A DNA stretch of 30,827 bases, taken from IMG/VR virus record IMGVR_UViG_2897375277_000004; one strand, written 5' to 3'. How positions within the stretch are numbered: the first letter of the stretch is position 1; each line of letters begins with the position of its first letter. The position numbers and the translations under genes were made by a program. This DNA is from a virus. Lineage: Duplodnaviria; Heunggongvirae; Uroviricota; Caudoviricetes. The notes below the pieces were generated by a model. The model saw only the letters and a list, made by a program, of their open reading frames with translations. It did not search any database and was not told where the DNA came from. Positions 6,605 to 25,040 of the stretch are shown in pieces.

Positions 6605-6903
6605 CCGTTTAACTCCGTGGTTAATGGGTGCAACTATTTTCTGTTGTGCAGAGCATGAGACGCTATTTGACCTGACTGGTCAGTGGATGAAACAACAGAT
6701 AAAGAAAAGGCGGACAATTCGCCCGCTATCCTGATTTGTACTCACTCATTTTCCAACTGACAGTTTACATAGCCCAAACGCTATCAAATCTGACAGCCTG
6801 CTTTGAGCGAACAGCAGACATTCATTAATATGTTTGTTAGGCTAACTTTATATGATGATTACTGAAATTGACCTTAGTTTGAGAATTGCATTAGGGGAAT
6901 AAA

Positions 6904-8010
6904 ATGGATGTCAATGAACTTAGAGAGTTACTTATCAAGTATAATGGCCTTCAAAATACTGATGAAGTCTATACGTTTTATTATGATGAAACGAATAACA
7001 TTCGAAAACTATATTTAAAAGATTCTGGCTTTAATGTTGTAAAGGCGGATAACTTCATCCTTGCAGGAATACTACACAAAGGGTTAAGCACTGACAGCGA
7101 TTATTCAACCCTGTTTCAAAAGCTTAATCTTCAAAAAAGTGTCAATGAGTTAAAACTCAGATATATCGCTAAGGGTAGTTTTTTGGATATGCTTAAATCC
7201 GATAAGCTTTTAATTATTCTAAACTGGCTTATCGAAAACAATTTCTACATCCATTATTTTAATCTTAATATCACATACTGGTCTATTATTGACATTGTTG
7301 ATTCTATTATTGGAGAGCTACATAATCCTTTTTATATCATGAACCACATGTCACTTAAGAGCGATTTTTATGAGCTTGCCAATAGCAATCCCGATGTTTT
7401 CCTGAATGCTCTACATAAATTTAACTACCCCGATATTCCAGAAGAAAAAGTTTATGAGTTTTGCCTCTGGCTTATCGATTTTACATGCATGCACAGTTGT
7501 ATGCTGCCAGATTTTCGAGCACACGCACTCGAAAATTTGGTTAAAGAATCTCTAAAAATCGAAGAACTACCGTTCATATCGGGATTTCATGGTCGAAAAC
7601 TGATCGATAGCTTTATGGTATTTTATTTAAGAAACTTGTATCTATTTAAAAATTCCGTTCACATATTTGATGAAGAAAAAAGCATTCAAGATGAAGTTAA
7701 AAACTTCCCGTTAACTGAAAATGGCATACCAATACAGAATCATGAATTCGTTAAATCCCACAACTCAGAGGCTATCCAACTATCTGATGTTATCGCAGGC
7801 TTTTTGGGTAAGTATTTTTCTTACTTAAAAGATGTAAATGACGAGCAATTAGCGATTGATAAGTCAGCCTTAACGAGCAAGCAATTTAAGACCCTTTCTG
7901 CGTTAAAACACATTATTGATGTTTCTGATGATGTTAGCAGAGGATTTTTTAATGAAGTTAGCAGCGAGGGAGAGCGACGGAGAAATAATCGTTTTTTACA
8001 TGGCGTATAA
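6904..8010 (+). CDS. Hypothetical cargo protein (368 aa) at the Z/fun variable locus; function unknown, candidate defence/exclusion gene
   Basis: Long ORF in visibly AT-rich DNA, opposite strand to all flanking late genes, good SD (AGGGG, 7 nt before ATG); motifs YYDET (aa 26-30) and IQLSDVIAG (aa 291-299). Confidence 0.7.
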   Translation: MDVNELRELLIKYNGLQNTDEVYTFYYDETNNIRKLYLKDSGFNVVKADNFILAGILHKGLSTDSDYSTLFQKLNLQKSVNELKLRYIAKGSFLDMLKSDKLLIILNWLIENNFYIHYFNLNITYWSIIDIVDSIIGELHNPFYIMNHMSLKSDFYELANSNPDVFLNALHKFNYPDIPEEKVYEFCLWLIDFTCMHSCMLPDFRAHALENLVKESLKIEELPFISGFHGRKLIDSFMVFYLRNLYLFKNSVHIFDEEKSIQDEVKNFPLTENGIPIQNHEFVKSHNSEAIQLSDVIAGFLGKYFSYLKDVNDEQLAIDKSALTSKQFKTLSALKHIIDVSDDVSRGFFNEVSSEGERRRNNRFLHGV

Positions 8011-8109
8011 TCGTAAGGGGTAAATTCTGCTTTTGGCACAGGGCGAACTGTCAGATTGGTTTTCACTCTGTGCCATAGATGTATAAACTCACATCAGAGC
8101 TTATACAAT

Positions 8110-8688
8110 TTATTGCGGCATTTCAGGCCATTCTATATTCGGAGCATCTTCCGGCTGAACTCGGTTAAGTAATACCCGGTATTTTTTCCATTTTGTCAGA
8201 CTTGATTTTTCTTCTTCGGTAGCCATATCTAAATCGACTGCATCCTGCAAAGTGGCAATAATTTCGCCTGCATATGCGGTCTGCTCTTTCTTCTGAAACT
8301 CAGCCTCCCTGACAAGCGCATCACGCTCTGCGCTCTCATCGTCCACCCACGCATTCCCGTTCCATTTCTGATAGTTGCCGGTCGGGGAAATTGTTGTTAC
8401 ATCAGATGGTAATGAGCCAAGTTCAGAAATATAAATGGCTGCTCCTGTTTTTGTTTCATAGACAGTCTTTCCGCGATGGTCTTCCACCAGCTCCCATTTC
8501 ATTTCATCTGCATTGAAAACGGCGGCAAAACCCACCGGAATATCTGGAGGTGCAATGTCTGTACTGTTTGCAGGAAGACCTGTATGCGGCGGAATATATG
8601 CGTCACTTTCGCCAATAAATTCATTGGTTCCATCAAGTAAATTGAAAACGCGGATGGTTTGTGCCTCTGCACTCATTCTGAAAGTCAT
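8110..8688 (-). CDS. G: Tail fibre assembly chaperone
   Basis: 192-aa ORF immediately downstream of tail fibre gene H, sharing a stop/start overlap; P2 gpG position but longer than P2 gpG (175 aa as recalled). Confidence 0.85.
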
Positions 8689-10505
8689 TATGCCAGCCTC
8701 ACAATATAGTTATACGCAACGTTTTTTACGGTGTTCTCTGAATTACCGGTGGCACTTACAGTGACGGTGTGACTATGTGCGCCAATCGCAATGGAATGGC
8801 TGTGAGCACCAATGCCAACCGTGTGATTATGCTGACCAATATCAACAGTATGGGCGTGCGCCCCGGCAGAGCTTGACACCTGGTTGTTTCCTGATACCTG
8901 TACGCGTTGTTTACCCCCGATGGAGTCACCACCGTAACGACCACCGACAGTGTGTGTATGCGCTCCCGTATTGTTTGTCGTTTTTGTGCCGTGGTTAAAC
9001 GTGCTGACCGTTTTTGTCCCGTAATCAAACGAACTGGTTGTTTTCGTCCCTAAATCCGTACTGGATGCACTGGCACTGTGGGTATGTGATTTAATTCCGT
9101 CCTGTTCCTGTGATAATACGGCGCGACCACTGGCGGGTTTGCCCTTGATTGTCCAGCCGCGCATATCTGGAATCACCCCTGACGGATAAGCTACTGCAAG
9201 CAGGGGATAGGCTGCTTTATCAAAAGTCTGCCCCTGCATCATGGCATAGCCTGTAGGTACTGAATCAGAAGGCCACGGGATTGGAGCACCTACCGGAAAT
9301 GAATCCTGCGGTGTCCATGGTGTCCAGCCACCCGTTGAATACTGGCTGCGGGTATAGCTTCTTGATGTGTTATAGACATAGTAAATTTGTGTTATTCCGG
9401 CATTTCTAAGCACAACCAGAGTACCTGCAAGATTCTCCGGGTATTTCAGCGATGCGCTTGTATTCGCATTCAGTGGCTGATGGTACAGTCCCGGCGTTTT
9501 GTAATTATCCAGATTCTGGTTTGCACCAATCCCAATACTCTGACCGTTAAAAATATCCTGCGATGTAATATTGACATCATTGGTCAGCGGTTTGCCATTG
9601 ACCTTACGCTCACCAGGAACGCGCCCGTTTGCATTGTCATTCGCGGCTTTAACCGCTTTTGGAGTCGCGGCAAGTGTTTCAGAATCGCTGTTAGTGGCGC
9701 TGCTTAACTGAACAATCCCTTTTCGTGCCGTGGTGGCGTCCTGTGCAGTGTATTTGCCATTAGCAAGGTCATATGCTGTCTTAACCGCCTTTGGCGTTGC
9801 TGCGAGCGTCTCAGATTCGCTGTTGATGGCACTACTTAGCTGAACAAGACCTTTTCGCCCCGTGCTGGCGTCCTGTGCGGTATATTTCCCGTTAGCAAGG
9901 TCATAGGCGTCCTTTACCGCTTTCGGCGTTGCGGCCAGTGTTTCAGACGTGCTGTTGGTCGCGCTGCTTAACTGAGTAAAACCTTTTGCGGTCAGCGAGG
10001 CGTCCGGGTGACGTCGTGACTGTTCGTGCTCTGCAATTTTGTCATCAACGTAATCCTGCGTCGCCATCACCGTTGTGGTGTCAATGGTCAGTTCCACTGA
10101 GGCCACACTGCTGACGATGATGACCATGCGGCAGGTCTGCGAACGCCCTGAGCCTTCGGCAAGGGCTGGCTTATAACTTTCGGCCATGTTCGCCACGGCA
10201 ATTAACGTTCCCGCATCATCGTACAGGCCAAGCTCACGCATCCAGAAACCGCCCACCTCCGGCGGGATAACCAGCTCTGCGATAATATAATTACTGTGTC
10301 GATTGTCCTGACTGATTTTATTCAGGGTATGTCGCCAGACCTCATTAACAAGTTTTGTCTGTCCGGCATCCGGGACAGGCAATTTACCACCACCATCCCC
10401 GACGGCCATCGTGGTAATGTTGACCTTCCGCCCTCCCGGCGCGGTTGCCGCTGCCAGCTTTGCTGCACCGGCAGTGGTGATAACGGTTTTGAATTTTGTG
10501 CTCAT
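8688..10505 (-). CDS. H: Tail fibre protein H
   Basis: 605-aa ORF; N-terminal part P2 H-like, three tandem ~44-aa [12 protein letters not shown] repeats, C-terminal part with six HxH motifs; shorter than P2 H (669 aa as recalled). Confidence 0.9.
9620..10000. repeat. Three tandem imperfect ~132-bp repeats inside H (encode ...[33 protein letters not shown]...)
   Basis: Repeat visible both in DNA and in the translated protein (aa ~170-296). Confidence 0.7.
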
Positions 10506-10515
10506 TATTCCTCAC

Positions 10516-11046
10516 TTATCCGGGGTAAACCGTAATTACATCGCCGTCGTAAGCCACACCACCGGCGAACAGGTGGCCGGGAATGTCCTGGGTAATGTTC
10601 AGACCAATAAGGTGACGGCTTGCAGGTTTGGCATCAGCAATCAGCCTCTCCATTTCCAGATACATTTCCTCTGTGATGCCGCTTTCCAGTACACCAATAT
10701 CAAGCCGGAAGGTGCCGGGCGGGTCACTGTTTTCCCACCACTCCGTCACGTTGATGAGATAGCCGAGCGGCTCCACCACACGCCGGATTGCGCCGATAGT
10801 GCCTTTATGACAGTGGATGAAATAGGCATCGCGGATAACGGCGCGTTTTGTCGCTTCCGGCCACTTTTCATCCCACCTGTCGACCGAAAACGCCCACGCC
10901 AGCCACGGCAGCAGATTTGCCGGGCAGGTGTCCGGGTTCCACAGCTCACGAATACTGACCGGTGTTTTTTCAATTTCCGCACAGGCTTTTGCGGCGGCGA
11001 CCTCAAGCGGTGATGAGCCGGTCGGCAGCAGTCGCGAATCACTCAT
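10516..11046 (-). CDS. I: Baseplate assembly protein I
   Basis: 176-aa ORF; P2 gpI length and position; overlaps J by 8 nt. Confidence 0.9.
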   Translation of the reverse strand: MSDSRLLPTGSSPLEVAAAKACAEIEKTPVSIRELWNPDTCPANLLPWLAWAFSVDRWDEKWPEATKRAVIRDAYFIHCHKGTIGAIRRVVEPLGYLINVTEWWENSDPPGTFRLDIGVLESGITEEMYLEMERLIADAKPASRHLIGLNITQDIPGHLFAGGVAYDGDVITVYPG

Positions 11047-11947
11047 CCGAGCCTCCGGTCACGACGCGGTATTCGGTACAGAAAGACGCCTGCGTACTGT
11101 TGAGCACGATGTCGGCCAGTGGTGAAGCCAGTTCAACACGCTGCACGCCTTCCACATGCAAAGCGGCATAAATGGCAGACAGACGGATGTCGCGCCCCAG
11201 CCGGTGCTGTGCCGTGATGTACGCTTCCAGTTTTTTCACGGCAGCAGCGCGGATGGGTTCGCTTTCAGGACCTGGGTAAAGGTAAAGCGTGGCGTTTATC
11301 TGATATTCAACAATGGCGGCAGACTGCACGGTCACGCGGTCGGCCACCGGCCTGACGTCCTCGCCATTAAGGGCGTTACGCACCACGGCCAGCAGGTCTT
11401 CGGATGCGACGCCGTTATTTTCACGTGACAGCACAGAGATGGTGACGCAGGCCGGAGACGGACTGGTGACAGAGATATCCGCGACACGCCCGTCGGCACT
11501 GCGACCATGATACTGATAGGCACCCACCGACCCGGCGACGCTTAAGCCCTCAAACGCCTGCTGAATACGCAGACGATAATCGGTGTCAGACTCCATCACT
11601 GCCGGTGTCGGCGGAATGGTCGAATCATCTTCCGGGGTGATAGTCAGGCGCGTGGTGTTGTAATTGGCACCAATCACATCAAGGTCATTACCGGCTGCAC
11701 AGGCCAGCATCACCGCCCGTGCAGCCTCATTCACACGCTGACGCCAGATAAGCTCACGATAAGCATTTTCCTCCAGCAGTTTGACGAGAGGCTCAGATTC
11801 CAGCGTCAGGGTACGGGCGACCGCCTCCTGCTGGTCTTCCGGGTAAAGGGAAATCAGTGTCGCCTTGCGTTCGGCGAGAATGGTTTCAAAGTCCAGCTCC
11901 TCGACCACATCCGGTGCAGGTAGCTGGTTCAGGTCGATAATCGGCAT
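11039..11947 (-). CDS. J: Baseplate assembly protein J
   Basis: 302-aa ORF; P2 gpJ length and position. Confidence 0.9.
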   Translation of the reverse strand: MPIIDLNQLPAPDVVEELDFETILAERKATLISLYPEDQQEAVARTLTLESEPLVKLLEENAYRELIWRQRVNEAARAVMLACAAGNDLDVIGANYNTTRLTITPEDDSTIPPTPAVMESDTDYRLRIQQAFEGLSVAGSVGAYQYHGRSADGRVADISVTSPSPACVTISVLSRENNGVASEDLLAVVRNALNGEDVRPVADRVTVQSAAIVEYQINATLYLYPGPESEPIRAAAVKKLEAYITAQHRLGRDIRLSAIYAALHVEGVQRVELASPLADIVLNSTQASFCTEYRVVTGGSDE

Positions 11948-11951
11948 GGTT

Positions 11952-12299
11952 TCAACTCACAGGGATGTTTAACGAAAGTGGCTGGCCGGTGTCGTTGTGC
12001 TGGCCGGTTAACGTAACTCTCATTCGCCCGTCAAAACTGCGCTCAGTGGTGACGGATGACAGGGTGACGCGGGGTTCCCATTTCAGCACCGCCATGTAAC
12101 AGGCGACCTTAATCTGCAACTCAAGCGCCGGGGTCTGCGGCTGGTCAATCATTGACGCCAGCAATGAGCCGTAATCACGACGCATCACCCGTGAGCCGAC
12201 CGGCGTGCGCAGGATATCACCGATACTCTGGCTGATATGCTCAAGGTCAGTGACAGTCAGGCCATCACTGCGATTCATTCCGAGATAACGCGCAGTCAT
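11952..12299 (-). CDS. W: Baseplate assembly protein W
   Basis: 115-aa ORF; P2 gpW length; 4-nt overlap with V. Confidence 0.9.
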   Translation of the reverse strand: MTARYLGMNRSDGLTVTDLEHISQSIGDILRTPVGSRVMRRDYGSLLASMIDQPQTPALELQIKVACYMAVLKWEPRVTLSSVTTERSFDGRMRVTLTGQHNDTGQPLSLNIPVS

Positions 12300-12931
12300 A
12301 GAGGTCCCCCTGTTGTGCCGCCACTGTCGCCGGGGTGTTTATGGGTATGCAGTACCTTACCGTTTGATGAGAGTTCACCGCCGGTGTGTTCAATGTTGCC
12401 GCGCATCGTCCCGCCCTTCTGTACTTCCAGCGTGCCGGTAATCAGCCTGTTGGTGCAGACCACCTCCGGTGTGTCCAGGGTGACGCGGGTTGACGCTTTC
12501 ACCATGACCACCGGCACCGTGGCGGTAACAGAATCAGAAGCCGTCACGCTGGCCGTTTTAATTCCGCTTACCGTCAGTGCACTGGTTTCGGGTTCATACT
12601 CAATCACCGCCCCGTCAGGGAAACGGATATGCAGGGCATCCGCCGACGCAGACGGCGCGGGGTTATCACCGGAATAAATTCCCGGCAGAACAAACGCCGT
12701 GTCAAGTTCACCGCCCACGGCCAGAATCAGCACCTGCTCCCCCACGGAAGGTGCCCACCATGTGCGCGAACGCCCGGCACGACAGGTCAGCCACTGAAGC
12801 CAGTCGGTGCACATACCGCCGGTCTGCACACGGCAGCGACCGGCGTTAAGGTCGGTTTCAACGATAATGCCGGTGCGGATCATGTTGCGCAGTGCGCGCG
12901 CGAGTTCCTGAATATTTGCGAGAGTGTTCAT
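12296..12931 (-). CDS. V: Baseplate spike protein V
   Basis: 211-aa ORF; P2 gpV length; first gene of V-W-J-I-H-G operon. Confidence 0.9.
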   Translation of the reverse strand: MNTLANIQELARALRNMIRTGIIVETDLNAGRCRVQTGGMCTDWLQWLTCRAGRSRTWWAPSVGEQVLILAVGGELDTAFVLPGIYSGDNPAPSASADALHIRFPDGAVIEYEPETSALTVSGIKTASVTASDSVTATVPVVMVKASTRVTLDTPEVVCTNRLITGTLEVQKGGTMRGNIEHTGGELSSNGKVLHTHKHPGDSGGTTGGPL

Positions 12932-12942
12932 AACGGGAAGGA

Positions 12943-12966
12943 TGCCGCCGGGTCATACCGGCGGCA
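12943..12966 (-). other. GC-rich hairpin between S and V (9-bp stem, 6-nt loop); possible attenuator or RNA-stability element
   Basis: Stem TGCCGCCGG / CCGGCGGCA read directly; no clear U-tract follows on the minus strand, so not called as a terminator. Confidence 0.4.
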
Positions 12967-12997
12967 ATGTGACGATGAGGTGTCAGGAATGGCACAA

Positions 12998-13450
12998 CTA
13001 ACGGTCGAGGTGAGCCAGAATAATCTCTTCAATCATCTGCACATCCTCACCGGTAAAGCCGAGCAGAGGACGCGCCGGATAATCAATTTTCTTACCGTCT
13101 TTCCGGGTTTCTTCCGACAGACCGAACTGATGCACGCTGGCGATTTTCGGTGACTTCCCGCCGTAAAACTCCATTGATGCCTGTTCCGGGCTGGCGCGGA
13201 TATGCAAAAAACGACTGGTGATAAGTTTCGCAAACATTTTTCGCTTAACACGACCGGTCTTTTTTCTGGCGCTCTGCTGCTGGCGTGGCGCGTAGGGTGT
13301 GCCGTCCGGGGCTTTCTGAGCCATCACCCGACGCTGCTGACTCTGCCGCAGACGTTTCGCCAGTTCGGCACTCAGTCGCCGACGCCCTGACGGTGACAGC
13401 GACTCAATCAGTCCGGTCAGCCGGTCTTCAAAACGCTTAAACTCATTCAT
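12998..13450 (-). CDS. S: Tail completion protein S
   Basis: 150-aa ORF; P2 gpS length and position. Confidence 0.88.
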   Translation of the reverse strand: MNEFKRFEDRLTGLIESLSPSGRRRLSAELAKRLRQSQQRRVMAQKAPDGTPYAPRQQQSARKKTGRVKRKMFAKLITSRFLHIRASPEQASMEFYGGKSPKIASVHQFGLSEETRKDGKKIDYPARPLLGFTGEDVQMIEEIILAHLDR

Positions 13451-13910
13451 CCCACTTGCTCACCAGTTCGCCATTGATATAAAGCTCCATCGGGCGGGTG
13501 ACCGACTCCGGCGGCGGGGGTTCCGGGATATTCTTCACATGCAGTGCGCCGTCGACCTCACTGACCAGCGTGCGCTCGGTCAGCATCAGGCTGATGCTGA
13601 CATCAAAGCTGCTGTCATTGTTGATGTCTGCATAAAACGTGAAGCCCTTTTTCTGGCCTTCGTCGGTGGTCATGATGTCGGGCTGATTTTCCCGCAGCCA
13701 CGCCAGTACCGGCACGATGAGCAGGTCAAAATCACCGGTAAAGTCGGTCACAATGACATTGAGCGTGTAACGCTTTTCGAATGACAACGACGCCGCCAGC
13801 GTGGAGGCAATACTCCCGTTATCCACGAATATCCGCAGCATATCGGGGTTAGTTTTCAGCACCGTGACGGCATCAGTCAGCGCCCTGCGCAGGCTGTCGG
13901 GTTTGAGCAT
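13443..13910 (-). CDS. R: Tail completion protein R
   Basis: 155-aa ORF; P2 gpR length and position. Confidence 0.88.
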   Translation of the reverse strand: MLKPDSLRRALTDAVTVLKTNPDMLRIFVDNGSIASTLAASLSFEKRYTLNVIVTDFTGDFDLLIVPVLAWLRENQPDIMTTDEGQKKGFTFYADINNDSSFDVSISLMLTERTLVSEVDGALHVKNIPEPPPPESVTRPMELYINGELVSKWDE

Positions 13911-14163
13911 CGTTTTCGTCCTGACAGTGTTTAATCATTTTTACCTGGCTGGCACAGCGTGCCAGCGCGTTCTCAAGCTGCCGGATATCAGCACTTAAAT
14001 CGCCGTTCGTCTGCGGGTCACTGCCCGGCATCGGGCAAAGGCTCACTTTCGGGCAGGCGTTGGCGACAATCACTGGCGTCGGTGCAGGCCGGGCGCTGGT
14101 GCAACCGGCGCACAGCATCAGGCAGGCCAGCGCCGTACCAGCGGCGAAAATCTTCGTTTTCAT
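13873..14163 (-). CDS. lysC: LysC, Rz1-like outer-membrane spanin lipoprotein
   Basis: 96-aa ORF starting inside the 3' end of lysB in another frame; N-terminal hydrophobic signal with Cys (MKTKIFAAGTALACLMLCAGC), Pro-rich body. Confidence 0.7.
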   Translation of the reverse strand: MKTKIFAAGTALACLMLCAGCTSARPAPTPVIVANACPKVSLCPMPGSDPQTNGDLSADIRQLENALARCASQVKMIKHCQDENDAQTRQPAQGAD

Positions 14164-14856: not shown

Positions 14857-14870
14857 GGTGTTTACTCCGT

Positions 14871-15649: not shown

Positions 15650-15652
15650 GCG

Positions 15653-16365: not shown

Positions 16366-16464
16366 AACTACCTCTGAAAAGTCGGGCGGTGGACGCCGGT
16401 ACAGTGTCAGGTGATTCACCCTCACTGACCGGCGTGCCGCCCTGGCGCGGGGCGCATTCGGTTG

Positions 16465-17202: not shown

Positions 17203-17205
17203 CGG

Positions 17206-18279
17206 TTACGCTCCCGGCTCTGCGGTCGCTTTAGCCAGTGTGGAGAAATCACCGACCTTAATTTTTTCCACCAGACAACCGGCGGCGTAGTCTTCCACCA
17301 CGTAATCAATGTTCATTGACTCGTAGTTCTCCACGCGGTCGAGTTTCGGGTTTTCCTCAATCACGCGGCGATGGCTGTCATCCATGTAGTAGATGGACAG
17401 GTTTTCCAGCTTTGTGATGAGCATCGCATCCGCCGGGAAGTACGGGACGCGTACCGCCGGCAGGTTACCGATGCGTTTCTGGCTGATGATGACGTCAGCG
17501 GCCAGCATTTCGCTGTTGTCCTGCTCCTTGTTGACGATGGGAAAATACTTGTCCGCCAGTAGCTGACGTCCCACAATCACCACAAGGTCAGGGTCTTCCT
17601 GATACCACGGCTCAATCAGGTTGTTGGTCGCATCCATCACCAGTGCGTCAAGGCTGGCATAATCACCGCCCTTACCCACGCGGATAACCTCAGAGGTGGT
17701 GTGCCCTTCCTCGTCAGTGACCTTGCTCATCACGCGCGCCGGGGCTTCATTGCGGTATTTCTGCAGCCAGCCGACCGCCACATCCTGCAGCATCGGATTG
17801 CTGCTGCGGTCAGAGGTTTCGGCACGCCTCACGCCGTTAAAACCGGCCATGATTAAATCAAGGGACTGGCGTTTGATAATGGCGTTACGGACACGGAGCT
17901 GGAAATCCTGATAACGCGCCCACAGGTCCAGCGTTTTGTAGCGGATATAAAAATCGAAGTTAATCTGGTCGCATTCGTACTTGTTTGACGCCAGCTTCGA
18001 GAAGTCCTTCGGCTGACGCTCGGTGCCACCGGCGGTGTCGGTGGTGCTGGCGATGGAGCCGGTGACACCGATGCCAATTTTTTCCCCTTTCATTTCGCTG
18101 ACCGGCACAATGTTGATGCGGGTCAGAAAGTCAGAGGACTCCTGCATGGTGTTCATCAGGGTCTGGGTGACCGACGGTTCAACGGTGAATTTTTTCGACA
18201 CATCACCGGCGTCGATGCCGTTCAGTTCGGCAACACGGGACAGGTAGGCATTAAATTTAAAGCGGGTTTCCTGGCGCAT
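17206..18279 (-). CDS. N: Major capsid protein N
   Basis: 357-aa ORF; P2 gpN length and position. Confidence 0.92.
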   Translation of the reverse strand: MRQETRFKFNAYLSRVAELNGIDAGDVSKKFTVEPSVTQTLMNTMQESSDFLTRINIVPVSEMKGEKIGIGVTGSIASTTDTAGGTERQPKDFSKLASNKYECDQINFDFYIRYKTLDLWARYQDFQLRVRNAIIKRQSLDLIMAGFNGVRRAETSDRSSNPMLQDVAVGWLQKYRNEAPARVMSKVTDEEGHTTSEVIRVGKGGDYASLDALVMDATNNLIEPWYQEDPDLVVIVGRQLLADKYFPIVNKEQDNSEMLAADVIISQKRIGNLPAVRVPYFPADAMLITKLENLSIYYMDDSHRRVIEENPKLDRVENYESMNIDYVVEDYAAGCLVEKIKVGDFSTLAKATAEPGA

Positions 18280-18337
18280 AGTTTTTCCTGAAATTAAGGG
18301 TTAATCGTGAAGGTTTTCCCGGACTGACTGACGCCGG

Positions 18338-19192
18338 TCAGCAGTTCGTCATCAGGGCGTCACCGCCACCACCGGTGGCCTTGCTGCGGCGCTGCTGGGT
18401 CAGACTTTCGGTGTGGTCGAGACTGTTTTTCAGGCGGGTGAATGCCTGGCTGGTTTCATCCGCCCTGTCAGTCACATCCTGCTTAAGTGCGGAAAAAGCG
18501 GTTTCCATCTCAGCGAGGCGCTGCTCAGTGGCGCTCAGTTTTTCCTGCACATGTTCAGCAACAGCGGTCACCGCTTCATGCACATCATTCAGACGGGCGT
18601 CATCGCTGGCCTGTTTGCGGCCAAAAATGGATTTCACCTTTTCAGTCAGGGCGGTGAACACGGTTTCAGGCAGGTCTTCAAATTCCAGCTCAACAGGCGT
18701 TGCCACTGAAATCAGGTTTTCAGGGCTTAATTTGAAGCGGTTCAGAGGGTTGTGTTTTGCCGTGCGGCAGAATTCCAGGTATTCCGTGCCGAGGCTTGCC
18801 GGGTCATCGGTGACGGCCAGACCCACCAGATAACATTTGCCTGTATTGGCAAAGTTCGGCTGAATTTCCATTGAGGTATAGACCTTCTGCGCGGCCTTGT
18901 TCATTGCGATAAGGTCATCGGTCGGGGTGATTTTCGCAAACAGCGCCCATTTGCCTTTCAGCGCCGAATCATCGTCAATCTTTTCGGCCTTCAGTTCGGC
19001 CACATCGCCATAACGCTTAAAAATACCGTCAGGCAGGATGCCGCGCAGATGTTCCAGGTTAATGCGGCAACCATAGACACGCGGGTCAAAGGTTTCGGCC
19101 ATTTCCTGAATATCCTGCGCACTGATGACACGCCCGTCACAGGTGTCACCCTCAACGCCGATACGAAAGAATTTTGAGACTTTTTTTGCCAT
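18338..19192 (-). CDS. O: Capsid scaffolding protein O
   Basis: 284-aa product from internal Met (MAKKVSKFFRIG...); P2 gpO length. Confidence 0.9.
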   Translation of the reverse strand: MAKKVSKFFRIGVEGDTCDGRVISAQDIQEMAETFDPRVYGCRINLEHLRGILPDGIFKRYGDVAELKAEKIDDDSALKGKWALFAKITPTDDLIAMNKAAQKVYTSMEIQPNFANTGKCYLVGLAVTDDPASLGTEYLEFCRTAKHNPLNRFKLSPENLISVATPVELEFEDLPETVFTALTEKVKSIFGRKQASDDARLNDVHEAVTAVAEHVQEKLSATEQRLAEMETAFSALKQDVTDRADETSQAFTRLKNSLDHTESLTQQRRSKATGGGGDALMTNC

Positions 19193-19365
19193 TGTCAGGA
19201 GTCCTGAATAGTGATTAGAGGAGTCACATGTCGGCATCAGTTTCCCGACGATGCGCATCCTCCGCCATCAGTCCCGGATGGCTTATCACTGACACAACAG
19301 CACCTTAGCGAATCGCGTGGCGCGACTCAGTAGCCTTGCCGTGTATTCATCACGGCGAGGTATTC
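19193..19365. promoter_or_regulatory. Divergent late-promoter region (P_O leftward, P_P rightward), expected Ogr-dependent
   Basis: Non-coding gap between divergently transcribed O and P, as in P2; exact -10 and Ogr sites not resolved by eye. Confidence 0.4.
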
Positions 19366-21138
19366 ATGACCATCACCACAGACACCACTCTTTTACACGA
19401 CCCGCGTCGTCAGGCGGCGCTGCTGTACTGGCAGGGGTTTTCCGTGCCGCAGATTGCCGCCATGTTGCAGATGAAACGCCCGACGGTGCAGAGCTGGAAA
19501 CAGCGCGACGGCTGGGACAGCGTTGCCCCCATCAGCCGTGTCGAAATGAGTCTGGAAGCGCGGCTGACCCAGCTCATCATCAAACCGCAGAAAACCGGCG
19601 GTGACTTCAAGGAAATTGACCTGCTGGGACGTCAGATTGAACGACTGGCACGGGTAAACCGCTACAGTCAGACCGGCAACGAGGCAGACCTTAATCCGAA
19701 CGTCGCTAACCGCAACAAAGGCGGGCGCCGCAAACCGAAAAAGAATTTTTTCAGTGACGAGGCCATCGAAAAGCTGGAGCAGATTTTCTTTGAGCAGTCT
19801 TTCGAATATCAGTTGCACTGGTATCGCGCCGGGCTTGAGCACCGCATCCGCGATATCCTGAAATCCCGCCAGATTGGCGCGACGTTTTATTTTTCCCGCG
19901 AGGCGCTGCTGCGCGCCCTGAAAACCGGTCATAACCAGATTTTTCTGTCGGCCAGTAAAACACAGGCGTATGTGTTCCGCGAATACATCATCGCCTTTGC
20001 CCGGCTGGTTGACGTTGACCTGACCGGTGACCCGATTGTCCTGGGCAATAACGGCGCAAAACTGATTTTTCTCGGCACCAACTCCAACACCGCACAGAGC
20101 CATAACGGTGACCTGTACGTCGACGAGATTTTCTGGATCCCGAATTTTCAGGTACTGCGTAAGGTGGCATCAGGTATGGCCTCACAGAGCCACCTGCGCT
20201 CTACCTATTTCTCCACCCCGTCCACGCTGGCGCACGACGCCTACCCGTTCTGGTCGGGTGAACTGTTCAACCGGGGACGCGCCAGCGCCGCCGAACGTGT
20301 GGAAATCGACGTCAGTCATAACGCCCTTGCCGGTGGGCTTCTCTGTGCGGACGGCCAGTGGCGGCAGATTGTCACCATTGAGGACGCCCTGAAAGGTGGC
20401 TGCACGCTGTTCGACATTGAGCAGCTTAAACGCGAAAACAGCGCCGACGATTTTAAAAACCTGTTCATGTGTGAATTTGTTGACGACAAGGCGTCGGTGT
20501 TCCCGTTCGAGGAGCTGCAACGCTGCATGGTCGACACGCTGGAAGAATGGGAAGACTATGCGCCGTTTGCCGCGAATCCGTTCGGCTCACGTCCGGTATG
20601 GATTGGTTACGACCCGTCACACCGTGGCGACAGCGCCGGATGCGTGGTGCTGGCACCGCCGGTGGTGGCCGGTGGCAAATTCAGAATACTTGAGCGTCAC
20701 CAGTGGAAAGGCATGGACTTTGCCACCCAGGCGGAATCCATCCGCAAACTCACCGAAAAATACAACGTCGAATACATCGGTATTGATGCCACCGGCCTCG
20801 GTGTCGGCGTGTTCCAGCTCGTGCGCTCGTTCTATCCCGCCGCGCGCGATATCCGCTACACGCCGGAAATGAAAACCGCAATGGTGCTCAAGGCAAAAGA
20901 CGTTATCCGTCGTGGCTGTCTGGAATATGACGTCAGCGCCACCGACATCACCAGCTCGTTTATGGCTATCCGCAAGACCATGACCAGCAGCGGACGCAGC
21001 GCCACCTATGAGGCCAGCCGCAGCGAGGAAGCCAGCCACGCCGACCTCGCCTGGGCGACCATGCACGCCCTGTTAAATGAGCCACTCACCGCCGGGATCA
21101 GCACCCCGCTGACATCCACCATTCTGGAGTTTTACTGA
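19366..21138 (+). CDS. P: Terminase ATPase (large) subunit P
   Basis: 590-aa product from Met at 19366 (MTITTDTTLLHD...) with GAGG SD; P2 gpP length; stop overlaps Q start (ATGA). Confidence 0.92.
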   Translation: MTITTDTTLLHDPRRQAALLYWQGFSVPQIAAMLQMKRPTVQSWKQRDGWDSVAPISRVEMSLEARLTQLIIKPQKTGGDFKEIDLLGRQIERLARVNRYSQTGNEADLNPNVANRNKGGRRKPKKNFFSDEAIEKLEQIFFEQSFEYQLHWYRAGLEHRIRDILKSRQIGATFYFSREALLRALKTGHNQIFLSASKTQAYVFREYIIAFARLVDVDLTGDPIVLGNNGAKLIFLGTNSNTAQSHNGDLYVDEIFWIPNFQVLRKVASGMASQSHLRSTYFSTPSTLAHDAYPFWSGELFNRGRASAAERVEIDVSHNALAGGLLCADGQWRQIVTIEDALKGGCTLFDIEQLKRENSADDFKNLFMCEFVDDKASVFPFEELQRCMVDTLEEWEDYAPFAANPFGSRPVWIGYDPSHRGDSAGCVVLAPPVVAGGKFRILERHQWKGMDFATQAESIRKLTEKYNVEYIGIDATGLGVGVFQLVRSFYPAARDIRYTPEMKTAMVLKAKDVIRRGCLEYDVSATDITSSFMAIRKTMTSSGRSATYEASRSEEASHADLAWATMHALLNEPLTAGISTPLTSTILEFY

Positions 21139-22172
21139 TGAGCAAGAAAAAAGGGAAAACACCGCAACCTGCGGCAAAAACAATGACCGCCAGCGCCCCG
21201 AAAATGGAGGCATTCACCTTTGGTGAGCCGGTGCCGGTACTCGACCGCCGTGACATTCTGGATTACGTCGAGTGCATCAGTAACGGCAGATGGTATGAGC
21301 CGCCGGTCAGCTTTACCGGTCTGGCAAAAAGCCTGCGTGCTGCCGTGCATCACAGCTCCCCGATTTACGTCAAACGTAATATTCTGGCCTCGACATTTAT
21401 CCCGCATCCGTGGCTGTCCCAGCAGGATTTCAGCCGCTTTGTGCTGGATTTTCTGGTGTTCGGTAATGCGTTTCTGGAAAAGCGTTACAGCACCACCGGT
21501 AAGGTCATCAGACTGGAAACCTCACCGGCAAAATATACCCGCCGTGGCGTGGAGGAGGATGTTTACTGGTGGGTGCCGTCCTTCAACGAGCCGACACCTT
21601 TCACGCCCGGCTCCGTGTTTCACCTGCTGGAGCCGGATATCAATCAGGAGCTGTACGGCCTGCCAGAATATCTCAGCGCCCTTAACTCTGCCTGGCTGAA
21701 TGAGTCGGCCACGCTGTTCCGCCGCAAGTATTACGAAAACGGCGCACATGCCGGATATATCATGTATATCACCGACGCATTGCAGGATCGCGATTACATT
21801 GACTCACTTCGCGAAAACATGGCCAAGTCGAAAGGACGCAATAACTTTAATAATCTGTTTCTCTATGCACCACAGGGAAAGCCAGACGGCATCAAAATTA
21901 TCCCGCTCAGTGAAGTGGCGACAAAGGACGATTTTTTTAATATCAAAAAATCCAGCGCCGCTGACCTGCTGGACGCGCACCGCATCCCCTTTCAGTTGAT
22001 GGGCGGCAAGCCGGAGAACGTCGGGTCACTGGGAGATATTGAGAAAGTGGCAAAGGTCTTTGTCCGCAATGAGCTTATCCCGTTACAGGACAGGATCCGC
22101 GAGATAAACGGCTGGCTCGGTCAGGAGGTCATCCGCTTTAAAAACTACTCACTGGACACTGACAACGGCTGA
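21138..22172 (+). CDS. Q: Portal protein Q
   Basis: 344-aa ORF; P2 gpQ length; adjacent to cos. Confidence 0.92.
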   Translation: MSKKKGKTPQPAAKTMTASAPKMEAFTFGEPVPVLDRRDILDYVECISNGRWYEPPVSFTGLAKSLRAAVHHSSPIYVKRNILASTFIPHPWLSQQDFSRFVLDFLVFGNAFLEKRYSTTGKVIRLETSPAKYTRRGVEEDVYWWVPSFNEPTPFTPGSVFHLLEPDINQELYGLPEYLSALNSAWLNESATLFRRKYYENGAHAGYIMYITDALQDRDYIDSLRENMAKSKGRNNFNNLFLYAPQGKPDGIKIIPLSEVATKDDFFNIKKSSAADLLDAHRIPFQLMGGKPENVGSLGDIEKVAKVFVRNELIPLQDRIREINGWLGQEVIRFKNYSLDTDNG

Positions 22173-22176
22173 ACAT

Positions 22177-22199: not shown

Positions 22200-22341
22200 A
22201 CACCCCGTCAGCACGCCCTCACACGCTCACCTCCGCGCAAAACAGCTCGCAGACAAACCAACGCCCCGGCACACAATCTAAACGCCATCACGACGCGCTC
22301 AGACGCTGAAAAAATAAAATCAGCACCACTGCCAGCGCGCG

Positions 22342-22360
22342 GTGCTTTCCCCGCCTCGCC
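22342..22360. other. cos site, 19-nt cohesive-end sequence
   Basis: Plus strand gtgctttccccgcctcgcc is the reverse complement of GGCGAGGCGGGGAAAGCAC, the P2 cohesive end as I recall it; located next to Q as in P2. Confidence 0.8.
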
Positions 22361-22602
22361 CGCCCGCTTCATGGGTCGGTTTTAATGCAGTTGCATTCGT
22401 ATACACACACCTTACCCAACAAAGTGTTCATCTTAGGTTTTAGACCACAAAATCAAATGCAAAATCATGCAACTGAAAGCTTGGCTGTGGCTTGAAAATG
22501 TTACTCATCTAAGGTAGATCTTTTGTAATTGCCATGTCTTTTCCAGAGCAATTTTTGACCAGTTTTCATATATACACACACAAACAATAGAGAAAAATAA
22601 AA

Positions 22603-24810
22603 ATGGAACTTAGTCTAAAAAATGTAACAAGCTACGACAAAAATAAATATACGAAAATATCCCTCGAAAAAAGAATAAATATCCTTTACGGGCAAAACGG
22701 AGCTGGGAAATCTACCATATCAAATTTTTTCTATAATCCAGCAGACGATGACTATAGGGACTGCCGCTGCACAAACATTAATAACTATCGTCCATTGGTT
22801 TATAATACAAAGTTCATTGAAGACAACTTCTTTGATAAAGATGTTCAAAAAGGGATTTTTACATTAAGCAAAGAAAATACCGAGATCGAAAAAGAGATAA
22901 GTAAGAAAAGAGAAATAGTTAAAACATTAAAAATAAAACTAGAGGCAACAAAAACAAATTATCAAAAAATTAAAGACCGCAATCATGATGCAGAAACAAG
23001 TTGTACTGAATCAATATGGTTAAATACCGAATACATAAGAAACTCTGATGTCAACTCATTAATGGCAGGGTACCTTAAGAATAAAAGAAACCTTTTCACA
23101 AAGGTAAAGTCTTCTATTAGATTATCTGATATAGATTTAAATCAATTATTAACTGACTACAGAGAGTTATTGAATCATAAAAACACCACCATACAAACAA
23201 TATCTCCATATAATCCTTATCCTATTTCTTTTGATGATGAAAATTTATTAAAGACTCCTGTCATTGATTCTAGCAATAGCTATCTATCAGAAACAATCAA
23301 AAAGCTTCAGAATCTCGATTGGGTTAAAAAAGGTAAAGAAAATTATTTAGTTGGCGACATTTGCCCTTTTTGTCAAAAAGAAACCATTGATGATAAATTC
23401 ACAGAGGCGCTCGAGCAAATTTTTGATGAAAGCTACGCTCAGAAAATAACATCAATTGAAAAATTAAAATATATTTATGAATTAACTACTCAAGAACAAC
23501 TTCAATTACTAAAAACACAGTTAAATGACTGTACAGCAATCTCAATTGAAGAAAGAAAAACTAGTCTTGCTCACATTTCTTCCCTTGAGAAAATGCTAAA
23601 AAGTAACATTGAGTTAATTAATAACAAGATACAAAACCCGTCACTCAGCGTAACTCTTGATAAAGATAAAGATATTGAGGAATCTCTTCTAAAAGACATA
23701 AAACAATATAACTCTAGAATTAATGACCTTAATGAAAAGGTAAAACAATTTAACCTTACTCAAGATAAAATAAAAAATCAGTTTTGGGGAGCATTGAGAA
23801 ACTACTGCAATACAGACTTTGAAGTTTTAGAGAAAATTCAAGCCGAAAACGACATCATTATCAAGAGTCTCGAAGAAAGCATTGATTCTATTAACAAAGA
23901 AATCAAACACACTGATGATGAAATAAAGGAATTAAGAAATAAAACATCCAATATCGACGCAACAATCTCCTCGATAAACTCAAAATTAAAAAACCTTGGC
24001 ATTACCTGTTTCTACATTGATAAACATCCAACCATAAAAAATAGTTTCGTTATAGTTCGCTCAGATAATACACCAAGTAAAAATGTATATAGATCTCTTA
24101 GCGAAGGTGAAAAAACTCTCATTACATTTCTCTATTTTATTGAATATTGTAAGGGACAAACAAACACAGATGAATTCGACAACCGAGACAGTTTAATCGT
24201 CATTGACGATCCTATTTCAAGTCTCTCTCAGAACTATATCTATGATATAGCATCGATGATTCACTATGACATTTTCACTTCTGCTAATAAAGTGATAATC
24301 CTCACTCATAATCTATATTTTTTTCATGAGCTAATAAAGTTAGCTCCAATTTCAGAAAGGAAATTCAATAGCACCTATCAGCTTTTTAGAATAACAAAAA
24401 ACCTACATAGTTCTTTTTCTAACATCAGCAGAGATAGTTTGCAAAATGAATATCAATCTTTATGGCAAATACTCAAGGATGCCAGAGATGGAAAAGTTCA
24501 CAATGTAGTTATCCCTAATACAATGAGAAACATCTTAGAATATTACTTTGCATTTGTTCATAAAACTAACGAGTTACAAGAAGAATTGAACAAGCTTGCA
24601 CAAAATGAAAGCAATAGTAATTTTAAGGCTTTCTATAGATATATAAATAGAGGTTCACACTCAGATTCGATAAACATAACAGATATGGGTGAAATAACAC
24701 CCGACATATACATCACACAATTTAAAGAGATATTTAGACTTATGGGAGATATTTCACATTTTAATAAAATGTATGAAGAGAAAAAGAATATAGAAGACAC
24801 TACCGCTTAG
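22603..24810 (+). CDS. Cargo protein (735 aa): Rad50/SMC-like ABC ATPase with coiled coil, CxxC hook and C-terminal extra domain; candidate defence effector
   Basis: Walker A GQNGAGKST (aa 30-38), long Lys/Glu-rich predicted coiled coil, CPFC (aa 254-257), signature-like LSEGEK (aa 499-504), Walker B LIVIDD (aa 531-536), H-loop LTHN (aa 567-570), ~165-aa C-terminal region; very AT-rich. Confidence 0.85.
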   Translation: MELSLKNVTSYDKNKYTKISLEKRINILYGQNGAGKSTISNFFYNPADDDYRDCRCTNINNYRPLVYNTKFIEDNFFDKDVQKGIFTLSKENTEIEKEISKKREIVKTLKIKLEATKTNYQKIKDRNHDAETSCTESIWLNTEYIRNSDVNSLMAGYLKNKRNLFTKVKSSIRLSDIDLNQLLTDYRELLNHKNTTIQTISPYNPYPISFDDENLLKTPVIDSSNSYLSETIKKLQNLDWVKKGKENYLVGDICPFCQKETIDDKFTEALEQIFDESYAQKITSIEKLKYIYELTTQEQLQLLKTQLNDCTAISIEERKTSLAHISSLEKMLKSNIELINNKIQNPSLSVTLDKDKDIEESLLKDIKQYNSRINDLNEKVKQFNLTQDKIKNQFWGALRNYCNTDFEVLEKIQAENDIIIKSLEESIDSINKEIKHTDDEIKELRNKTSNIDATISSINSKLKNLGITCFYIDKHPTIKNSFVIVRSDNTPSKNVYRSLSEGEKTLITFLYFIEYCKGQTNTDEFDNRDSLIVIDDPISSLSQNYIYDIASMIHYDIFTSANKVIILTHNLYFFHELIKLAPISERKFNSTYQLFRITKNLHSSFSNISRDSLQNEYQSLWQILKDARDGKVHNVVIPNTMRNILEYYFAFVHKTNELQEELNKLAQNESNSNFKAFYRYINRGSHSDSINITDMGEITPDIYITQFKEIFRLMGDISHFNKMYEEKKNIEDTTA

Positions 24811-25040
24811 GCCGCATATCATCTCATCGTGTTGGGTAAGAACGGCGGTGTTTACGCACCGTCTCCCAACGTCCGAAACGATAGCGGTTGTACTGACGTA
24901 CTCTCACTAGTTTCAACATGAGTTTATCTCCATGTCAGCACAATTGTTGCCAATTGCAGCCTTTATACCCTATGCATAAAGCGTATACACTGAGCATTCC
25001 ATGGGATATCCCAAGCGGTAGCCTGAGCATTTTATGGTAA

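Follow-up and report, generated by a model that had tools for sequence, protein, structure and literature searches.

A P2-like prophage with an RloC-family gene and a DUF3800 gene at two published variable loci

The Z region, the TO region, and orf30 are published variable loci of the P2-like coliphages (PMC3091744), and P2 defense hotspots have been described by Rousset et al. 2022 (PMC9122126), Vassallo et al. 2022 (PMC9519451), and Moura de Sousa et al. 2026 (PMC13586616), with hotspot #1 between gpA and gpQ beside cos and hotspot #2 in the tail-gene region, at the fun locus. An "AAA_13 / RloC-like" gene with 420 occurrences is listed as system #5 of the A-Q hotspot (Table S5B of PMC9122126) and corresponds to the cargo that we find at this locus; eight further P2-hotspot systems were cloned in that study and three were active, and the RloC-like gene is not among the three described. 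For RloC, tRNase activity and activation by inducers of DNA breaks have been reported rather than phage exclusion, and the anti-phage role is largely inferred (PMC2610378, PMC3458546, PMC3874168). PrrC, from the E. coli prr locus, has been published as a protein without a coiled-coil/zinc-hook insert that always resides inside a type I R-M locus by which it is silenced (PMC2610378, PMC3458546).

The DNA analyzed here, 30,827 nt in its entirety (the window), is a complete P2-like (Peduovirus) prophage that runs from ogr to int in the orientation opposite to the P2 map. Its two cargo genes occupy the same two positions as the P2 hotspots, from which nothing essential differs.

The P2 backbone and its divergent places

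The window has the gene order, cos, late operons, and replication genes of P2 and the P2-like coliphages. Nucleotide alignment to P2 (NC_001895) over the whole window gave four collinear blocks and left the cargo islands unaligned; identity by blastn was 96.2% over 3-6818, 95.6% over 9778-12931, 97.3% over 12996-22360, and 96.9% over 25103-29073. With every P2 protein as a tblastn query, 33 backbone proteins were 94 to 100% identical.

4..6604, minus strand: block 1, ogr, D, U, T, E/E', FII, and FI (late tail); P2 24252-17433, 96.2% nucleotide identity; proteins 94-100%
10516..12931, minus strand: block 2, I, J, W, and V (baseplate); 95.6% nucleotide identity; proteins 97-99%
12998..22172: block 3, S, R, lysC/B/A, K, Y, X, L, M, N, and O (minus strand), P and Q (plus strand); P2 9369-1, 97.3% nucleotide identity; proteins 94-100%
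22342..22360, no strand: cos, 19-nt cohesive-end sequence matching P2 cosL 1-19 and cosR 33575-33593
25041..29072, minus strand: block 4, A, orf83, orf82, orf81, orf80, B, and orf78 (replication); P2 30261-26290, 96.9% nucleotide identity; proteins 94-100%

The 15 backbone ORF lengths given in the first-pass annotation were all right, each at its expected place: D 387 aa (301-1464), FI 396 (5414-6604), Q 344 (21138-22172), U 159, T 815, FII 172, V 211, W 115, J 302, I 176, N 357, Y 93, and K 165, with P at 590 and O at 284 if started at the ATG equivalent to that of P2 (600 and 306 aa as mechanical ORFs). The same annotation had confined the differences from P2 to three places. H/G, Z/fun, and tin/old are indeed divergent, but the places number five in all, as orf30, within the annotated 6605-25040, and int/C/cox, beyond it, have to be added. 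P2 differs from the window in having fun(Z), old, tin, orf91, and orf30, none of which found a match in the window by tblastn of every P2 protein, as well as in the C-terminus of H, in G, and in int/C/cox.

8110..8688, minus strand: G, tail-fiber assembly chaperone, 192 aa, non-P2 allele (Pfam Caudo_TAP, 1e-39)
8688..10505, minus strand: H, tail fiber, 605 aa, with a P2-like N-terminal ~250 aa (9753-10505) and an exchanged C-terminal part (8688-9752)
12932..12997, no strand: empty orf30 site, third classical variable locus; the 786-bp P2 orf30 is unmatched
29075..30827: cox (minus strand), C and int (plus strand), non-P2 immunity/integration module of L-413C/P24B2 type

As had been noted, H and G measure 605 and 192 aa here against 669 and 175 aa in P2. 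Residues 1-251 of H match P2 at 91.6% and the remainder has no match, with the nucleotide breakpoint at 9778 (blastn), and only the last 70 aa of G match P2 G, at 46% (tblastn). The H/G pair is 96.5% identical in nucleotides to that of Salmonella phage STYP1, and window positions 8701-9290, within H, are 80 to 81% identical to T-even-type long tail-fiber genes. Exchange of the receptor-binding C-terminal ~350 aa of H together with chaperone G as a unit would alter the host range. At the third classical locus the S-V gap is only ~64 bp (blastn against P2), and orf30, which STYP1 lacks as well, is simply absent. Cox, C, and Int are only 43 to 52% identical to P2 in amino acids and 99.7 to 99.9% identical in nucleotides to L-413C and Peduovirus P24B2, and thereby of a different immunity and integration type.

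STYP1 (NC_073747) has a chassis 96.7 to 97.2% identical to that of the window and the same lengths of H and G, but its Z locus is empty and a Fic/VbhT gene stands at its A-Q locus. Enterobacteria phage fiAA91-ss (NC_022750) carries a DUF3800 gene at the same junctions (95.7% amino acid identity), but its G and H are of the P2 type. Because these two phages share single modules with the window in other combinations, the modules assort independently; with neither cargo gene in P2 (tblastn), the proposed horizontal exchange on a conserved chassis held.

Borders of the two islands

No P2 match was found by blastn over 6819-8025 and 22390-25102, and the GC profile shows two islands at 0.28-0.37 amid a backbone at 0.52-0.61, exactly at Z/fun and tin/old. 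Up to each border the final 50-nt windows are 74 to 100% identical, and the alignment then ends. The flanks of the A-Q locus match 2,147 of 5,426 complete E. coli genomes and the window's cargo is in only 17; for the FI-G locus the flanks match 1,685 of the 5,426 and the cargo occurs in only 6, in line with independent assortment of the modules.

Divergence or decay of the P2 genes in place, rather than their horizontal replacement, was refuted by these tests. Nothing was found in its favor beyond a somewhat greater divergence, at 70 to 86% identity, over the final 100-200 nt next to some borders. Even at the protein level nothing similar to fun(Z), old, tin, or orf91 remains, GC falls by ~25 points, the two cargo genes have intact ORFs whose catalytic residues are invariant, the exact same cargo proteins are encoded by several other public assemblies, and the STYP1 site is empty.

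The DUF3800 gene of the Z/fun locus

In the Z region, from G to the V-operon terminator, a single DUF3800 gene takes the place of fun(Z).

6708..6726, minus strand: hairpin and T-run, terminator-like site
6737..6818, no strand: Z-region element, left terminal repeat; equivalent to the feature called "right inverted repeat" in GenBank AJ512677/AJ512680
6819..8025, plus strand: Z/fun-locus cargo cassette, 1,207 bp, GC ~0.33, no P2 match
6904..8010, plus strand: cargo 1, 368-aa DUF3800 protein with an RNase H-like fold (PADLOC PDC-S51, phrog_15126)
8026..8107, no strand: right terminal repeat, ending in GAGCTTATACA, 2 nt before the G stop codon

Because the Z site of STYP1 is empty, 6727-8108 is a clean insertion; in STYP1 the terminator at 6708..6726 directly follows the stop codon of G, and here it is split from G by the insertion. 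The cargo lies within a transposon-like element with ~83-nt terminal inverted repeats, copies of which elsewhere have 7-bp target duplications. The ~83-nt end is conserved in 17 other loci, the element termini read TGTA...TACA, and 24 of 32 positions are complementary between 6787-6818 and 8026-8057. Identical inner junctions were found in six P2-like Z regions with five different cargoes. The left and right inverted repeats annotated in P2-EC31 (AJ512677) and P2-EC46 (AJ512680), reportedly those of Nilsson et al. 2004, Mol Biol Evol 21:1, map to 8022-8133 and 6729-6822 of the window and likewise have cargo between them, which differs: Shedu (SduA) in P2-EC31, a Lit-like gene and an HNH-type effector gene in P2-EC46, and DUF3800 here. 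The Z-locus flanks would be the two ~83-nt ends of an old transposon-like insertion, with cargo swapped always at the same inner junctions.

The 368-aa protein belongs to Pfam PF12686, has the DE and QxxD motifs with conserved D28, E29, D130, Q292, and D295, and contains a large helical insertion; its best fold matches are RNase H2/H3. It shares the family, motifs, and RNase H2-like fold with PADLOC PDC-S51 and with the DUF3800 proteins found at retron type VII and Cas12a2/a3 loci, but is a stand-alone protein of 368 aa with the long insertion, and no RT, TPR, CRISPR neighbor, or Rfam DUF3800 RNA motif accompanies it. That this protein is the cassette's own mobility enzyme, a DDE-type transposase of RNase H fold that works on the inverted repeats at its flanks, is highly improbable. 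The RNase H-like fold with conserved acidic residues, the long terminal inverted repeats on either side of the gene with their TGTA...TACA termini, and the lack of any other transposase within any element copy would suit such a role, but the same ends enclose at least 7 unrelated cargoes without DUF3800, integrases score lower than RNase H2/H3 in the fold comparison, and at least one close homologue (Vibrio, L010) has only a local hairpin after the gene and no full end pair. We consider a passenger that is a stand-alone nuclease-type anti-phage effector most likely, as suggested by the locus, the defense-island neighbors of its homologues, and its PADLOC candidate status. We found no functional test of the 368-aa protein in the literature, and the searchable hotspot texts (PMC9122126, PMC9519451, PMC13586616) do not mention DUF3800 as cargo of the fun locus.

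The RloC-family gene and the role of the cargo

Between cos and gene A, one RloC-family gene replaces P2 old, tin, and orf91.

22390..25102, plus strand: TO-region/hotspot #1 island, 2.7 kb, GC ~0.30, no P2 or STYP1 match
22603..24810, plus strand: cargo 2, 735-aa RloC-family ABC-ATPase/anticodon nuclease (Pfam AAA_13, PADLOC PDC-S06, phrog_2801)

Besides old, tin, and orf91, the island takes the place of the final ~19 codons of A, and the P2 and STYP1 comparisons stop at identical borders. The protein matches AAA_13 over its full length (7e-111) and PDC-S06 (3e-250). The family motifs, taken as defined in PMC2610378, are G30-K36, C254-P-F-C257, L499SEGE, D535D536, H569, and R642-x3-E646-x39-S685H686, and do not vary across 85 homologues, the most distant at 18% identity. 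In the AF2 model the head is split, the insert is helical, and the C-domain is all-alpha; the top Foldseek matches are Rad50/SMC. One homologue (P0081) is annotated as "wobble nucleotide-excising tRNase" and others as "translation-disabling ACNase," and identity to annotated RloCs is only ~26 to 28%. Judged by every sequence criterion for the family, the protein is an RloC-family member. It has the ABC ATPase motifs, the coiled-coil/CXXC zinc-hook insert, and the C-terminal R-x3-E-x36-52-(S)H triad of the Geobacillus kaustophilus and Acinetobacter baylyi proteins, and like them is a single gene without a linked R-M locus; at 735 rather than 804 aa and prophage-borne, it is likened to RloC through published motifs (PMC2610378). 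It shares with PrrC an ABC ATPase N-domain, the anticodon-nuclease triad, and the concept of abortive infection via tRNA cleavage, but unlike PrrC it has the insert, and its neighbors are cos and gene A.

The architecture of the protein is RloC-like, whereas activity and trigger are argued by analogy. A Rad50-like ABC ATPase, its head split by a coiled-coil insert with a CPFC zinc-hook tip, precedes an all-alpha, putative anticodon-nuclease domain (R642, E646, H686). By the RloC regulation model (PMC3458546, PMC3874168), the ATPase/zinc-hook part may silence the nuclease until DNA ends or damage of an infection are sensed, and the freed nuclease would excise the wobble nucleotide of certain tRNAs, halting translation and aborting the infection.

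It is unlikely, in our judgment, that the cargo genes serve lysogenic-conversion or selfish functions other than anti-phage defense; the RloC-like protein could, for example, be a DNA-damage-responsive translation brake for prophage or host in genotoxic stress, and the DUF3800 protein could be an RNA/DNA-processing enzyme outside immunity. In keeping with such functions, elements with the same ends bear a ClC channel or a 6-kb metabolic set elsewhere, about a quarter of P2 A-Q loci hold partition genes and some hold toxins (PMC9122126), and DUF3800 has undefined roles alongside retrons and Cas12 systems. Against them, both loci are documented defense hotspots with validated systems (PMC9122126, PMC9519451), other P2-like phages have Shedu (SduA), Lit-like, and fun(Z) genes at these Z junctions, DUF3800 homologues adjoin SIR2/HerA-type, Shedu SduA_C-domain, and GmrSD_C genes, and PADLOC counts both families as defense candidates.

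The suggestion that the two cargo genes are likely carriers of novel biology was overstated, because both loci are published as variable regions and defense hotspots, the 735-aa protein is listed as "RloC-like," and the 368-aa protein belongs to a PADLOC candidate family and a PHROG and is present in a sequenced phage. The reading of a chassis with swapped cassettes is correct, yet already published knowledge, and the prophage is an ordinary one. Modules may be swapped as conserved flanks recombine, and very probably, with our readings of the RloC-family, DUF3800, and H/G modules included, a near-invariant chassis for morphogenesis, lysis, and replication bears exchangeable modules at fixed loci.

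Modular composition of the prophage

The window is a complete P2-like prophage that runs from ogr to int in the orientation opposite to the P2 map. Its capsid, tail, lysis and replication genes are homologous to those of P2 and follow the P2 gene order, as in other members of Peduovirus, and when all annotated P2 proteins were used as tblastn queries, 33 were found to be 94 to 100% identical in the window. The closest sequences in the phage collection are Peduoviruses of Escherichia, Yersinia and Salmonella, with 95 to 97% identity over 69 to 79% of the region.

Prophage ends, cos and segments aligned to P2 (ends from the ORF map; identities in nucleotides, from blastn against NC_001895)
4-219: ogr, at the left end of the window
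3-6818: aligned to P2 24252-17433, 96.2% identity
9778-12931: aligned to P2 13461-10308, 95.6% identity
12996-22360: aligned to P2 9369-1, 97.3% identity
22342-22360: P2-type cos, a 19-mer matching P2 cosL/cosR, between Q and the right-end accessory region
25103-29073: aligned to P2 30261-26290, 96.9% identity
[quoted passage not shown]

The first-pass annotation had described a backbone colinear with P2 on which cargo had been replaced, and the comparison bears this out. All of the backbone ORF lengths that it gave agree with the ORF map, the P2 comparison and tblastn, as do the altered lengths of the tail fiber proteins H and G (605 and 192 amino acids, versus 669 and 175 in P2). By blastn, two segments have no P2 counterpart, 6819-8025 at the Z/fun locus between G and FI and 22390-25102 at the A-Q locus beside cos. 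They coincide with troughs in GC content (0.32-0.37 and 0.28-0.34, respectively, against 0.52-0.61 in the backbone), and at their borders identity is 74 to 100% in the last 50-nt windows before the alignment ends abruptly. Both loci hold variable, non-core genes at the positions of the known hotspots, gpA-gpQ (hotspot #1) and fun(Z) (hotspot #2). No match to fun(Z), old, tin or orf91 was found in the window at the protein level by tblastn of P2 proteins, so that no homologs of the three P2 exclusion proteins OLD, Tin and Fun(Z) were identified in it. Conversely, P2 lacks both cargo genes, and the cargo is rare where the flanks are present: among 5,426 complete E. coli genomes, the A-Q flanks occur in 2,147 and the window's cargo in 17 of these, and the FI-G flanks occur in 1,685 and the cargo in 6. 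Because the cargo is rare and absent from P2, the alternative that these are core genes of most P2-like phages, or genes of P2 itself, does not hold.

Divergence from P2 extends beyond the Z/fun, tin/old and H/G loci, the three places to which it had been assigned. The absence of orf30 and the divergence of the cox/C/int region had been overlooked, bringing the total to five. The orf30 site, the third classical variable locus of P2, is empty at 12932-12997, leaving about 64 bp from S to V, as in Salmonella phage STYP1 (NC_073747). The cox/C/int region (29075-30827) has only 43 to 52% amino acid identity to P2 and 99.7 to 99.9% nucleotide identity to Yersinia phage L-413C and Peduovirus P24B2, and is of an immunity and integration type other than that of P2.

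Exchange of the tips of tail fibers among unrelated phages is reportedly a classic observation made with P2 (Haggard-Ljungquist and colleagues, 1992). In the window, the C terminus of H (8701-9290, the last ~200 codons) has 80 to 81% DNA identity to long tail-fiber genes of T-even-type phages of ~170 kb, including vB_EcoM_PTE-Eco15 and Salmonella phage Lv5cm, and a 237-nt piece of it is 96% identical to the 86-kb Salmonella phages SP4 and SEP1. The prophage has its tail-fiber tip in common with a phage of Salmonella Typhi, a point relevant to host range. Inside G (8147-8250, minus strand) there is a sub-threshold Rfam match to IS009, an E. coli sRNA family, and this was the one notable match of a permissive scan of 6500-8250. 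It scores 42 bits (E = 6e-8), below the gathering score of 117, and is clipped at the edge of the scanned stretch; it probably reflects remnants of a tail-fiber-assembly gene in the family seed and not an RNA gene in the window.

Horizontal exchange on a conserved chassis, as had been proposed, is seen in how differently the same modules combine in relatives. STYP1 has 96.7 to 97.2% chassis identity with the window and the same H/G alleles; it also lacks orf30, but its Z locus is empty, with 128 bp from G to FI, and its A-Q locus holds a Fic/VbhT gene. Against STYP1, the Z locus of the window is one clean insertion (6727-8108). The border of the A-Q island on the A side falls at base 25103 in both the P2 and STYP1 comparisons, and that on the cos side differs by a few bases (22389 against P2, 22396 against STYP1). 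Enterobacteria phage fiAA91-ss (NC_022750) carries the same Z-locus gene, encoding a DUF3800 protein (95.7% amino acid identity), with identical junctions, but its G is of the P2 type, and the comparison contig L002 encodes the identical DUF3800 protein with a different H/G pair of 607 and 181 amino acids. Both exact cargo proteins are encoded on the same contigs in at least three public assemblies. In contigs encoding the identical DUF3800 protein, fieF and pfkA adjoin the prophage on the ogr side and the order of tail genes is the same; this protein is also 100% identical to a cluster whose representative is named by one source as Escherichia albertii. For the A-Q island, the maximum identity among complete E. 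coli genomes is 99.1%.

The mosaic is real and was correctly modeled, and it is a textbook case of the modular evolution known for P2-like phages. The TO region, the Z region and orf30 have been described as three common sites of horizontally acquired genes in these phages (Lynch et al. 2010, PMC3091744); 18,150 E. coli A-Q loci have been analyzed as a defense hotspot (Rousset et al. 2022, PMC9122126); hotspots have been described at both the A-Q and the fun locus (Vassallo et al. 2022, PMC9519451); and the hotspot analysis has been widened to 1,511 P2-like prophages (Moura de Sousa et al. 2026, PMC13586616). The expectation that the two cargo genes carry novel biology was overstated. The two hotspots, the inverted repeats and the RloC-like gene had all been recorded before, and the DUF3800 gene has been catalogued as a candidate. 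As originally stated, the finding contains nothing new and is a clean example of P2-like modularity. Some potential for novelty lies only in the DUF3800 candidate and in the Z-locus element, with its resemblance to a transposon and its distribution.

The RloC-like gene of the A-Q locus

The A-Q cargo gene encodes a 735-residue protein matched end to end by Pfam AAA_13 (7e-111) and over its full length by PADLOC PDC-S06 (3.3e-250), a candidate system that is not validated. A near-identical sequence is listed as P2-hotspot system #5, "AAA_13," with 420 occurrences and the description "RloC-like" (Rousset Table S5B, PMC9122126). RloC is defined by ABC-ATPase motifs, a coiled-coil insert bearing a CXXC zinc hook, and a C-terminal triad (Davidov and Kaufmann 2008, PMC2610378), the last being Arg-X3-Glu-X36-52-His, often with Ser preceding the His (PMC2610378). 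The protein has the ATPase motifs, the Rad50-like insert that splits the nucleotide-binding head, and the triad, and all of the residues listed are invariant in 85 homologs with identities down to 18%.

RloC motifs of the A-Q cargo protein (22603-24810, plus strand)
G30QNGAGKS: Walker A
C254PFC257: CXXC zinc hook
L499SEGE: ABC signature
D535D536PISS: Walker B/D-loop
H569: linchpin His
R642-NIL-E646, 39 residues, S685-H686: C-terminal triad

An AlphaFold (AF2) model (pLDDT 84) likewise has a split nucleotide-binding head, with long helices spanning residues 90-448, the CPFC loop at 249-263 between helices, and an all-alpha C-terminal domain (616-724) that holds the triad. C254-P-F-C257 is a predicted zinc hook. 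Foldseek places Rad50 and SMC heads as the best solved-structure matches of the model, whereas sequence searches of the PDB gave no meaningful match and NCBIfam returned only SMC-type matches far below threshold. One homolog (P0081) is annotated as a "wobble nucleotide-excising tRNase," and homologs in Streptococcus prophages as a "translation-disabling ACNase." The related nuclease PrrC is described as having no zinc-hook insert and as residing within a type I restriction-modification (hsd/prr) locus (PMC2610378), whereas the protein in the window has the insert and its gene neighbors cos and gene A, which rules out PrrC. By analogy to RloC of Geobacillus and Acinetobacter, an RloC-type mechanism is likely, in which a DNA-dependent ATPase and the zinc hook would restrain the nuclease until DNA ends or damage have been detected; once released, the nuclease would cut the wobble nucleotide out of target tRNAs and translation would come to a halt.

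No flanking inverted repeats were found at the A-Q island. A basic 31-residue ORF between the RloC-like gene and gene A (24824-24919, minus strand), called in some public contigs and not in others, is probably spurious. Promoter scans of both islands gave counts that did not exceed the shuffled expectation, and we therefore claim no promoter for either.

The DUF3800 gene of the Z locus

The Z-locus cargo gene (6904-8010, plus strand) encodes a 368-residue protein that matches Pfam DUF3800 (PF12686) over residues 25-302 at 32.2 bits against a cut-off of 21, and PADLOC PDC-S51, also a candidate system that is not validated, over its full length (1.4e-106). The corresponding phrog_15126 is annotated as "unknown function." The protein conforms to the RNase H-like fold of the DUF3800 family, and its DE motif (D28-E29) and QxxD motif (Q292-L-S-D295), together with D130, D256 and E258, are invariant in 73 homologous sequences. 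No relative in the PDB was detectable by sequence, and NCBIfam gave no family for DUF3800, G or H. Structured RNA motifs have been associated with DUF3800 (Weinberg et al. 2017); motifs DUF3800-I to -XI accompany part of the family and are no requirement for membership, and none gave an Rfam match at the gathering threshold in the whole window or at E<=10 in a permissive scan of 6500-8250. ORF2 of P2-EC46 has the same length of 368 residues but no BLASTP similarity to the protein, and we therefore regard the equal length as coincidence.

Homologs with 56 to 88% identity lie in island-like contexts, where their neighbors include SIR2+DUF87, PLDc_2, a Shedu SduA_C-domain gene, GmrSD_C, DUF4365, integrases and a relaxase. 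In an island of Pectobacterium parmentieri (L014), a second, shorter DUF3800 gene encoding 244 residues (12290-13024) lies 4 kb from a PDC-S51-type homolog, and an SduA_C-domain (Shedu) gene and an Imm63 gene are also present. Our literature search returned no experimental record for either cargo gene and no experimental test of the DUF3800 protein's family. From genomic context, our best guess is a nuclease-type role in defense, and the DUF3800/PDC-S51 gene may on its own encode a genuine RNase H-like effector against phages. For annotation, a DUF3800 nuclease candidate and a tRNA-cutting enzyme of the RloC type would be assigned to the prophage, and phage exclusion by either is cheap to test.

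A transposon-like element at the Z locus and elsewhere

The DUF3800 gene lies within an element with long terminal inverted repeats, or arms, whose inner ends are exactly where homology between the window and P2 stops. The same inner junctions were found in six P2-like Z regions with five different cargoes of 1,062 to 3,060 bp. The arms have been annotated as left and right inverted repeats since 2002-2004, in GenBank AJ512677 (P2-EC31) and AJ512680 (P2-EC46).

Features of the Z-locus element
6737-8107: whole element, with ~83-nt terminal inverted repeats and consensus termini 5'-TGTATTAGCTCA...TGAGCTAATACA-3'
6787-6818 and 8026-8057: imperfect inverted repeat, 24 of 32 positions complementary, bracketing the 1,207-bp cargo
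8034-8075: local hairpin (TGGCACAGGGCGAA / TTCACTCTGTGCCA) within the right end, just 3' of the DUF3800 stop codon

The local hairpin lacks a T-run and is therefore not a canonical terminator; its equivalent in P2 has a perfect 11-bp stem. The arm consensus has no match elsewhere in the window, in P2 or in STYP1.

When one genome per species was scanned with the left-arm pattern, 17 further loci were identified in Enterobacterales and Shewanella. These loci have in common an ~83-nt end beginning TGTATTAGCTCA and carry unrelated cargo, and no P2 tail genes lie within 8 kb of any of them. A matching right end was present within the examined stretch at 6 of the 17, and 4 of these 6 two-ended copies are flanked by perfect 7-bp direct duplications (AGTTAGC, AATAATT, CACTATT and GCTAATA). 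These duplications point to movement of the element by transposition. A reading of the repeats as integron attC sites was dropped, as the repeats form pairs of ends on either side of the cargo, beyond which the target duplications lie, and are not single 3' sites. No transposase was found within the element in the loci inspected. The Z/fun hotspot of P2 may be a resident non-autonomous transposon that makes 7-bp target duplications, and not just a recombination-prone gap. This reading, taken with that of the DUF3800/PDC-S51 gene as a single-gene RNase H-like anti-phage effector, is a tentative proposal to which we give a less than even chance.

Element-related copies occur in 1,798 of 5,426 E. 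coli genomes, with a median of one copy, and on 64 plasmids. One copy lies in a Kosakonia P2-like prophage, at the A-Q hotspot, beside a helicase/ATPase pair that by eye resembles Gabija, and other contexts include P4-type integrases, a tRNA-Leu island in O157:H7, plasmids and Enterobacterales chromosomes. Shedu (SduA), PDC-S31, DUF3800 and a Lit-like peptidase paired with an HNH-type effector are among the cargoes, as are a ClC channel and a set of metabolic genes, which are not related to defense. We speculate that the conserved ends could serve as portable homology, by which Shedu, Lit-like, PDC-S31, DUF3800 and non-defense cargo would be shuttled between elements.

At three of the comparison loci (L029 at ~2395, L031 at ~1242 and L037 at ~2049), the left end is interrupted at one and the same position, between CTTTGAGC and TGTGAGTT. 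In L029, the remaining arm resumes ~1.2 kb downstream, with complementary sequence (TTGAACTCACAG) just before it. This pattern hints that the arm is the target of a second small element.

A full-text literature search for the end sequences of the Z-type element returned nothing relevant. This transposon-like element with long conserved ends, which holds the Z-locus cargo and recurs in other mobile elements, could matter more than the mosaic itself and, if not already described, would provide a concrete mechanism for moving defense cassettes between phages, satellites, plasmids and islands.
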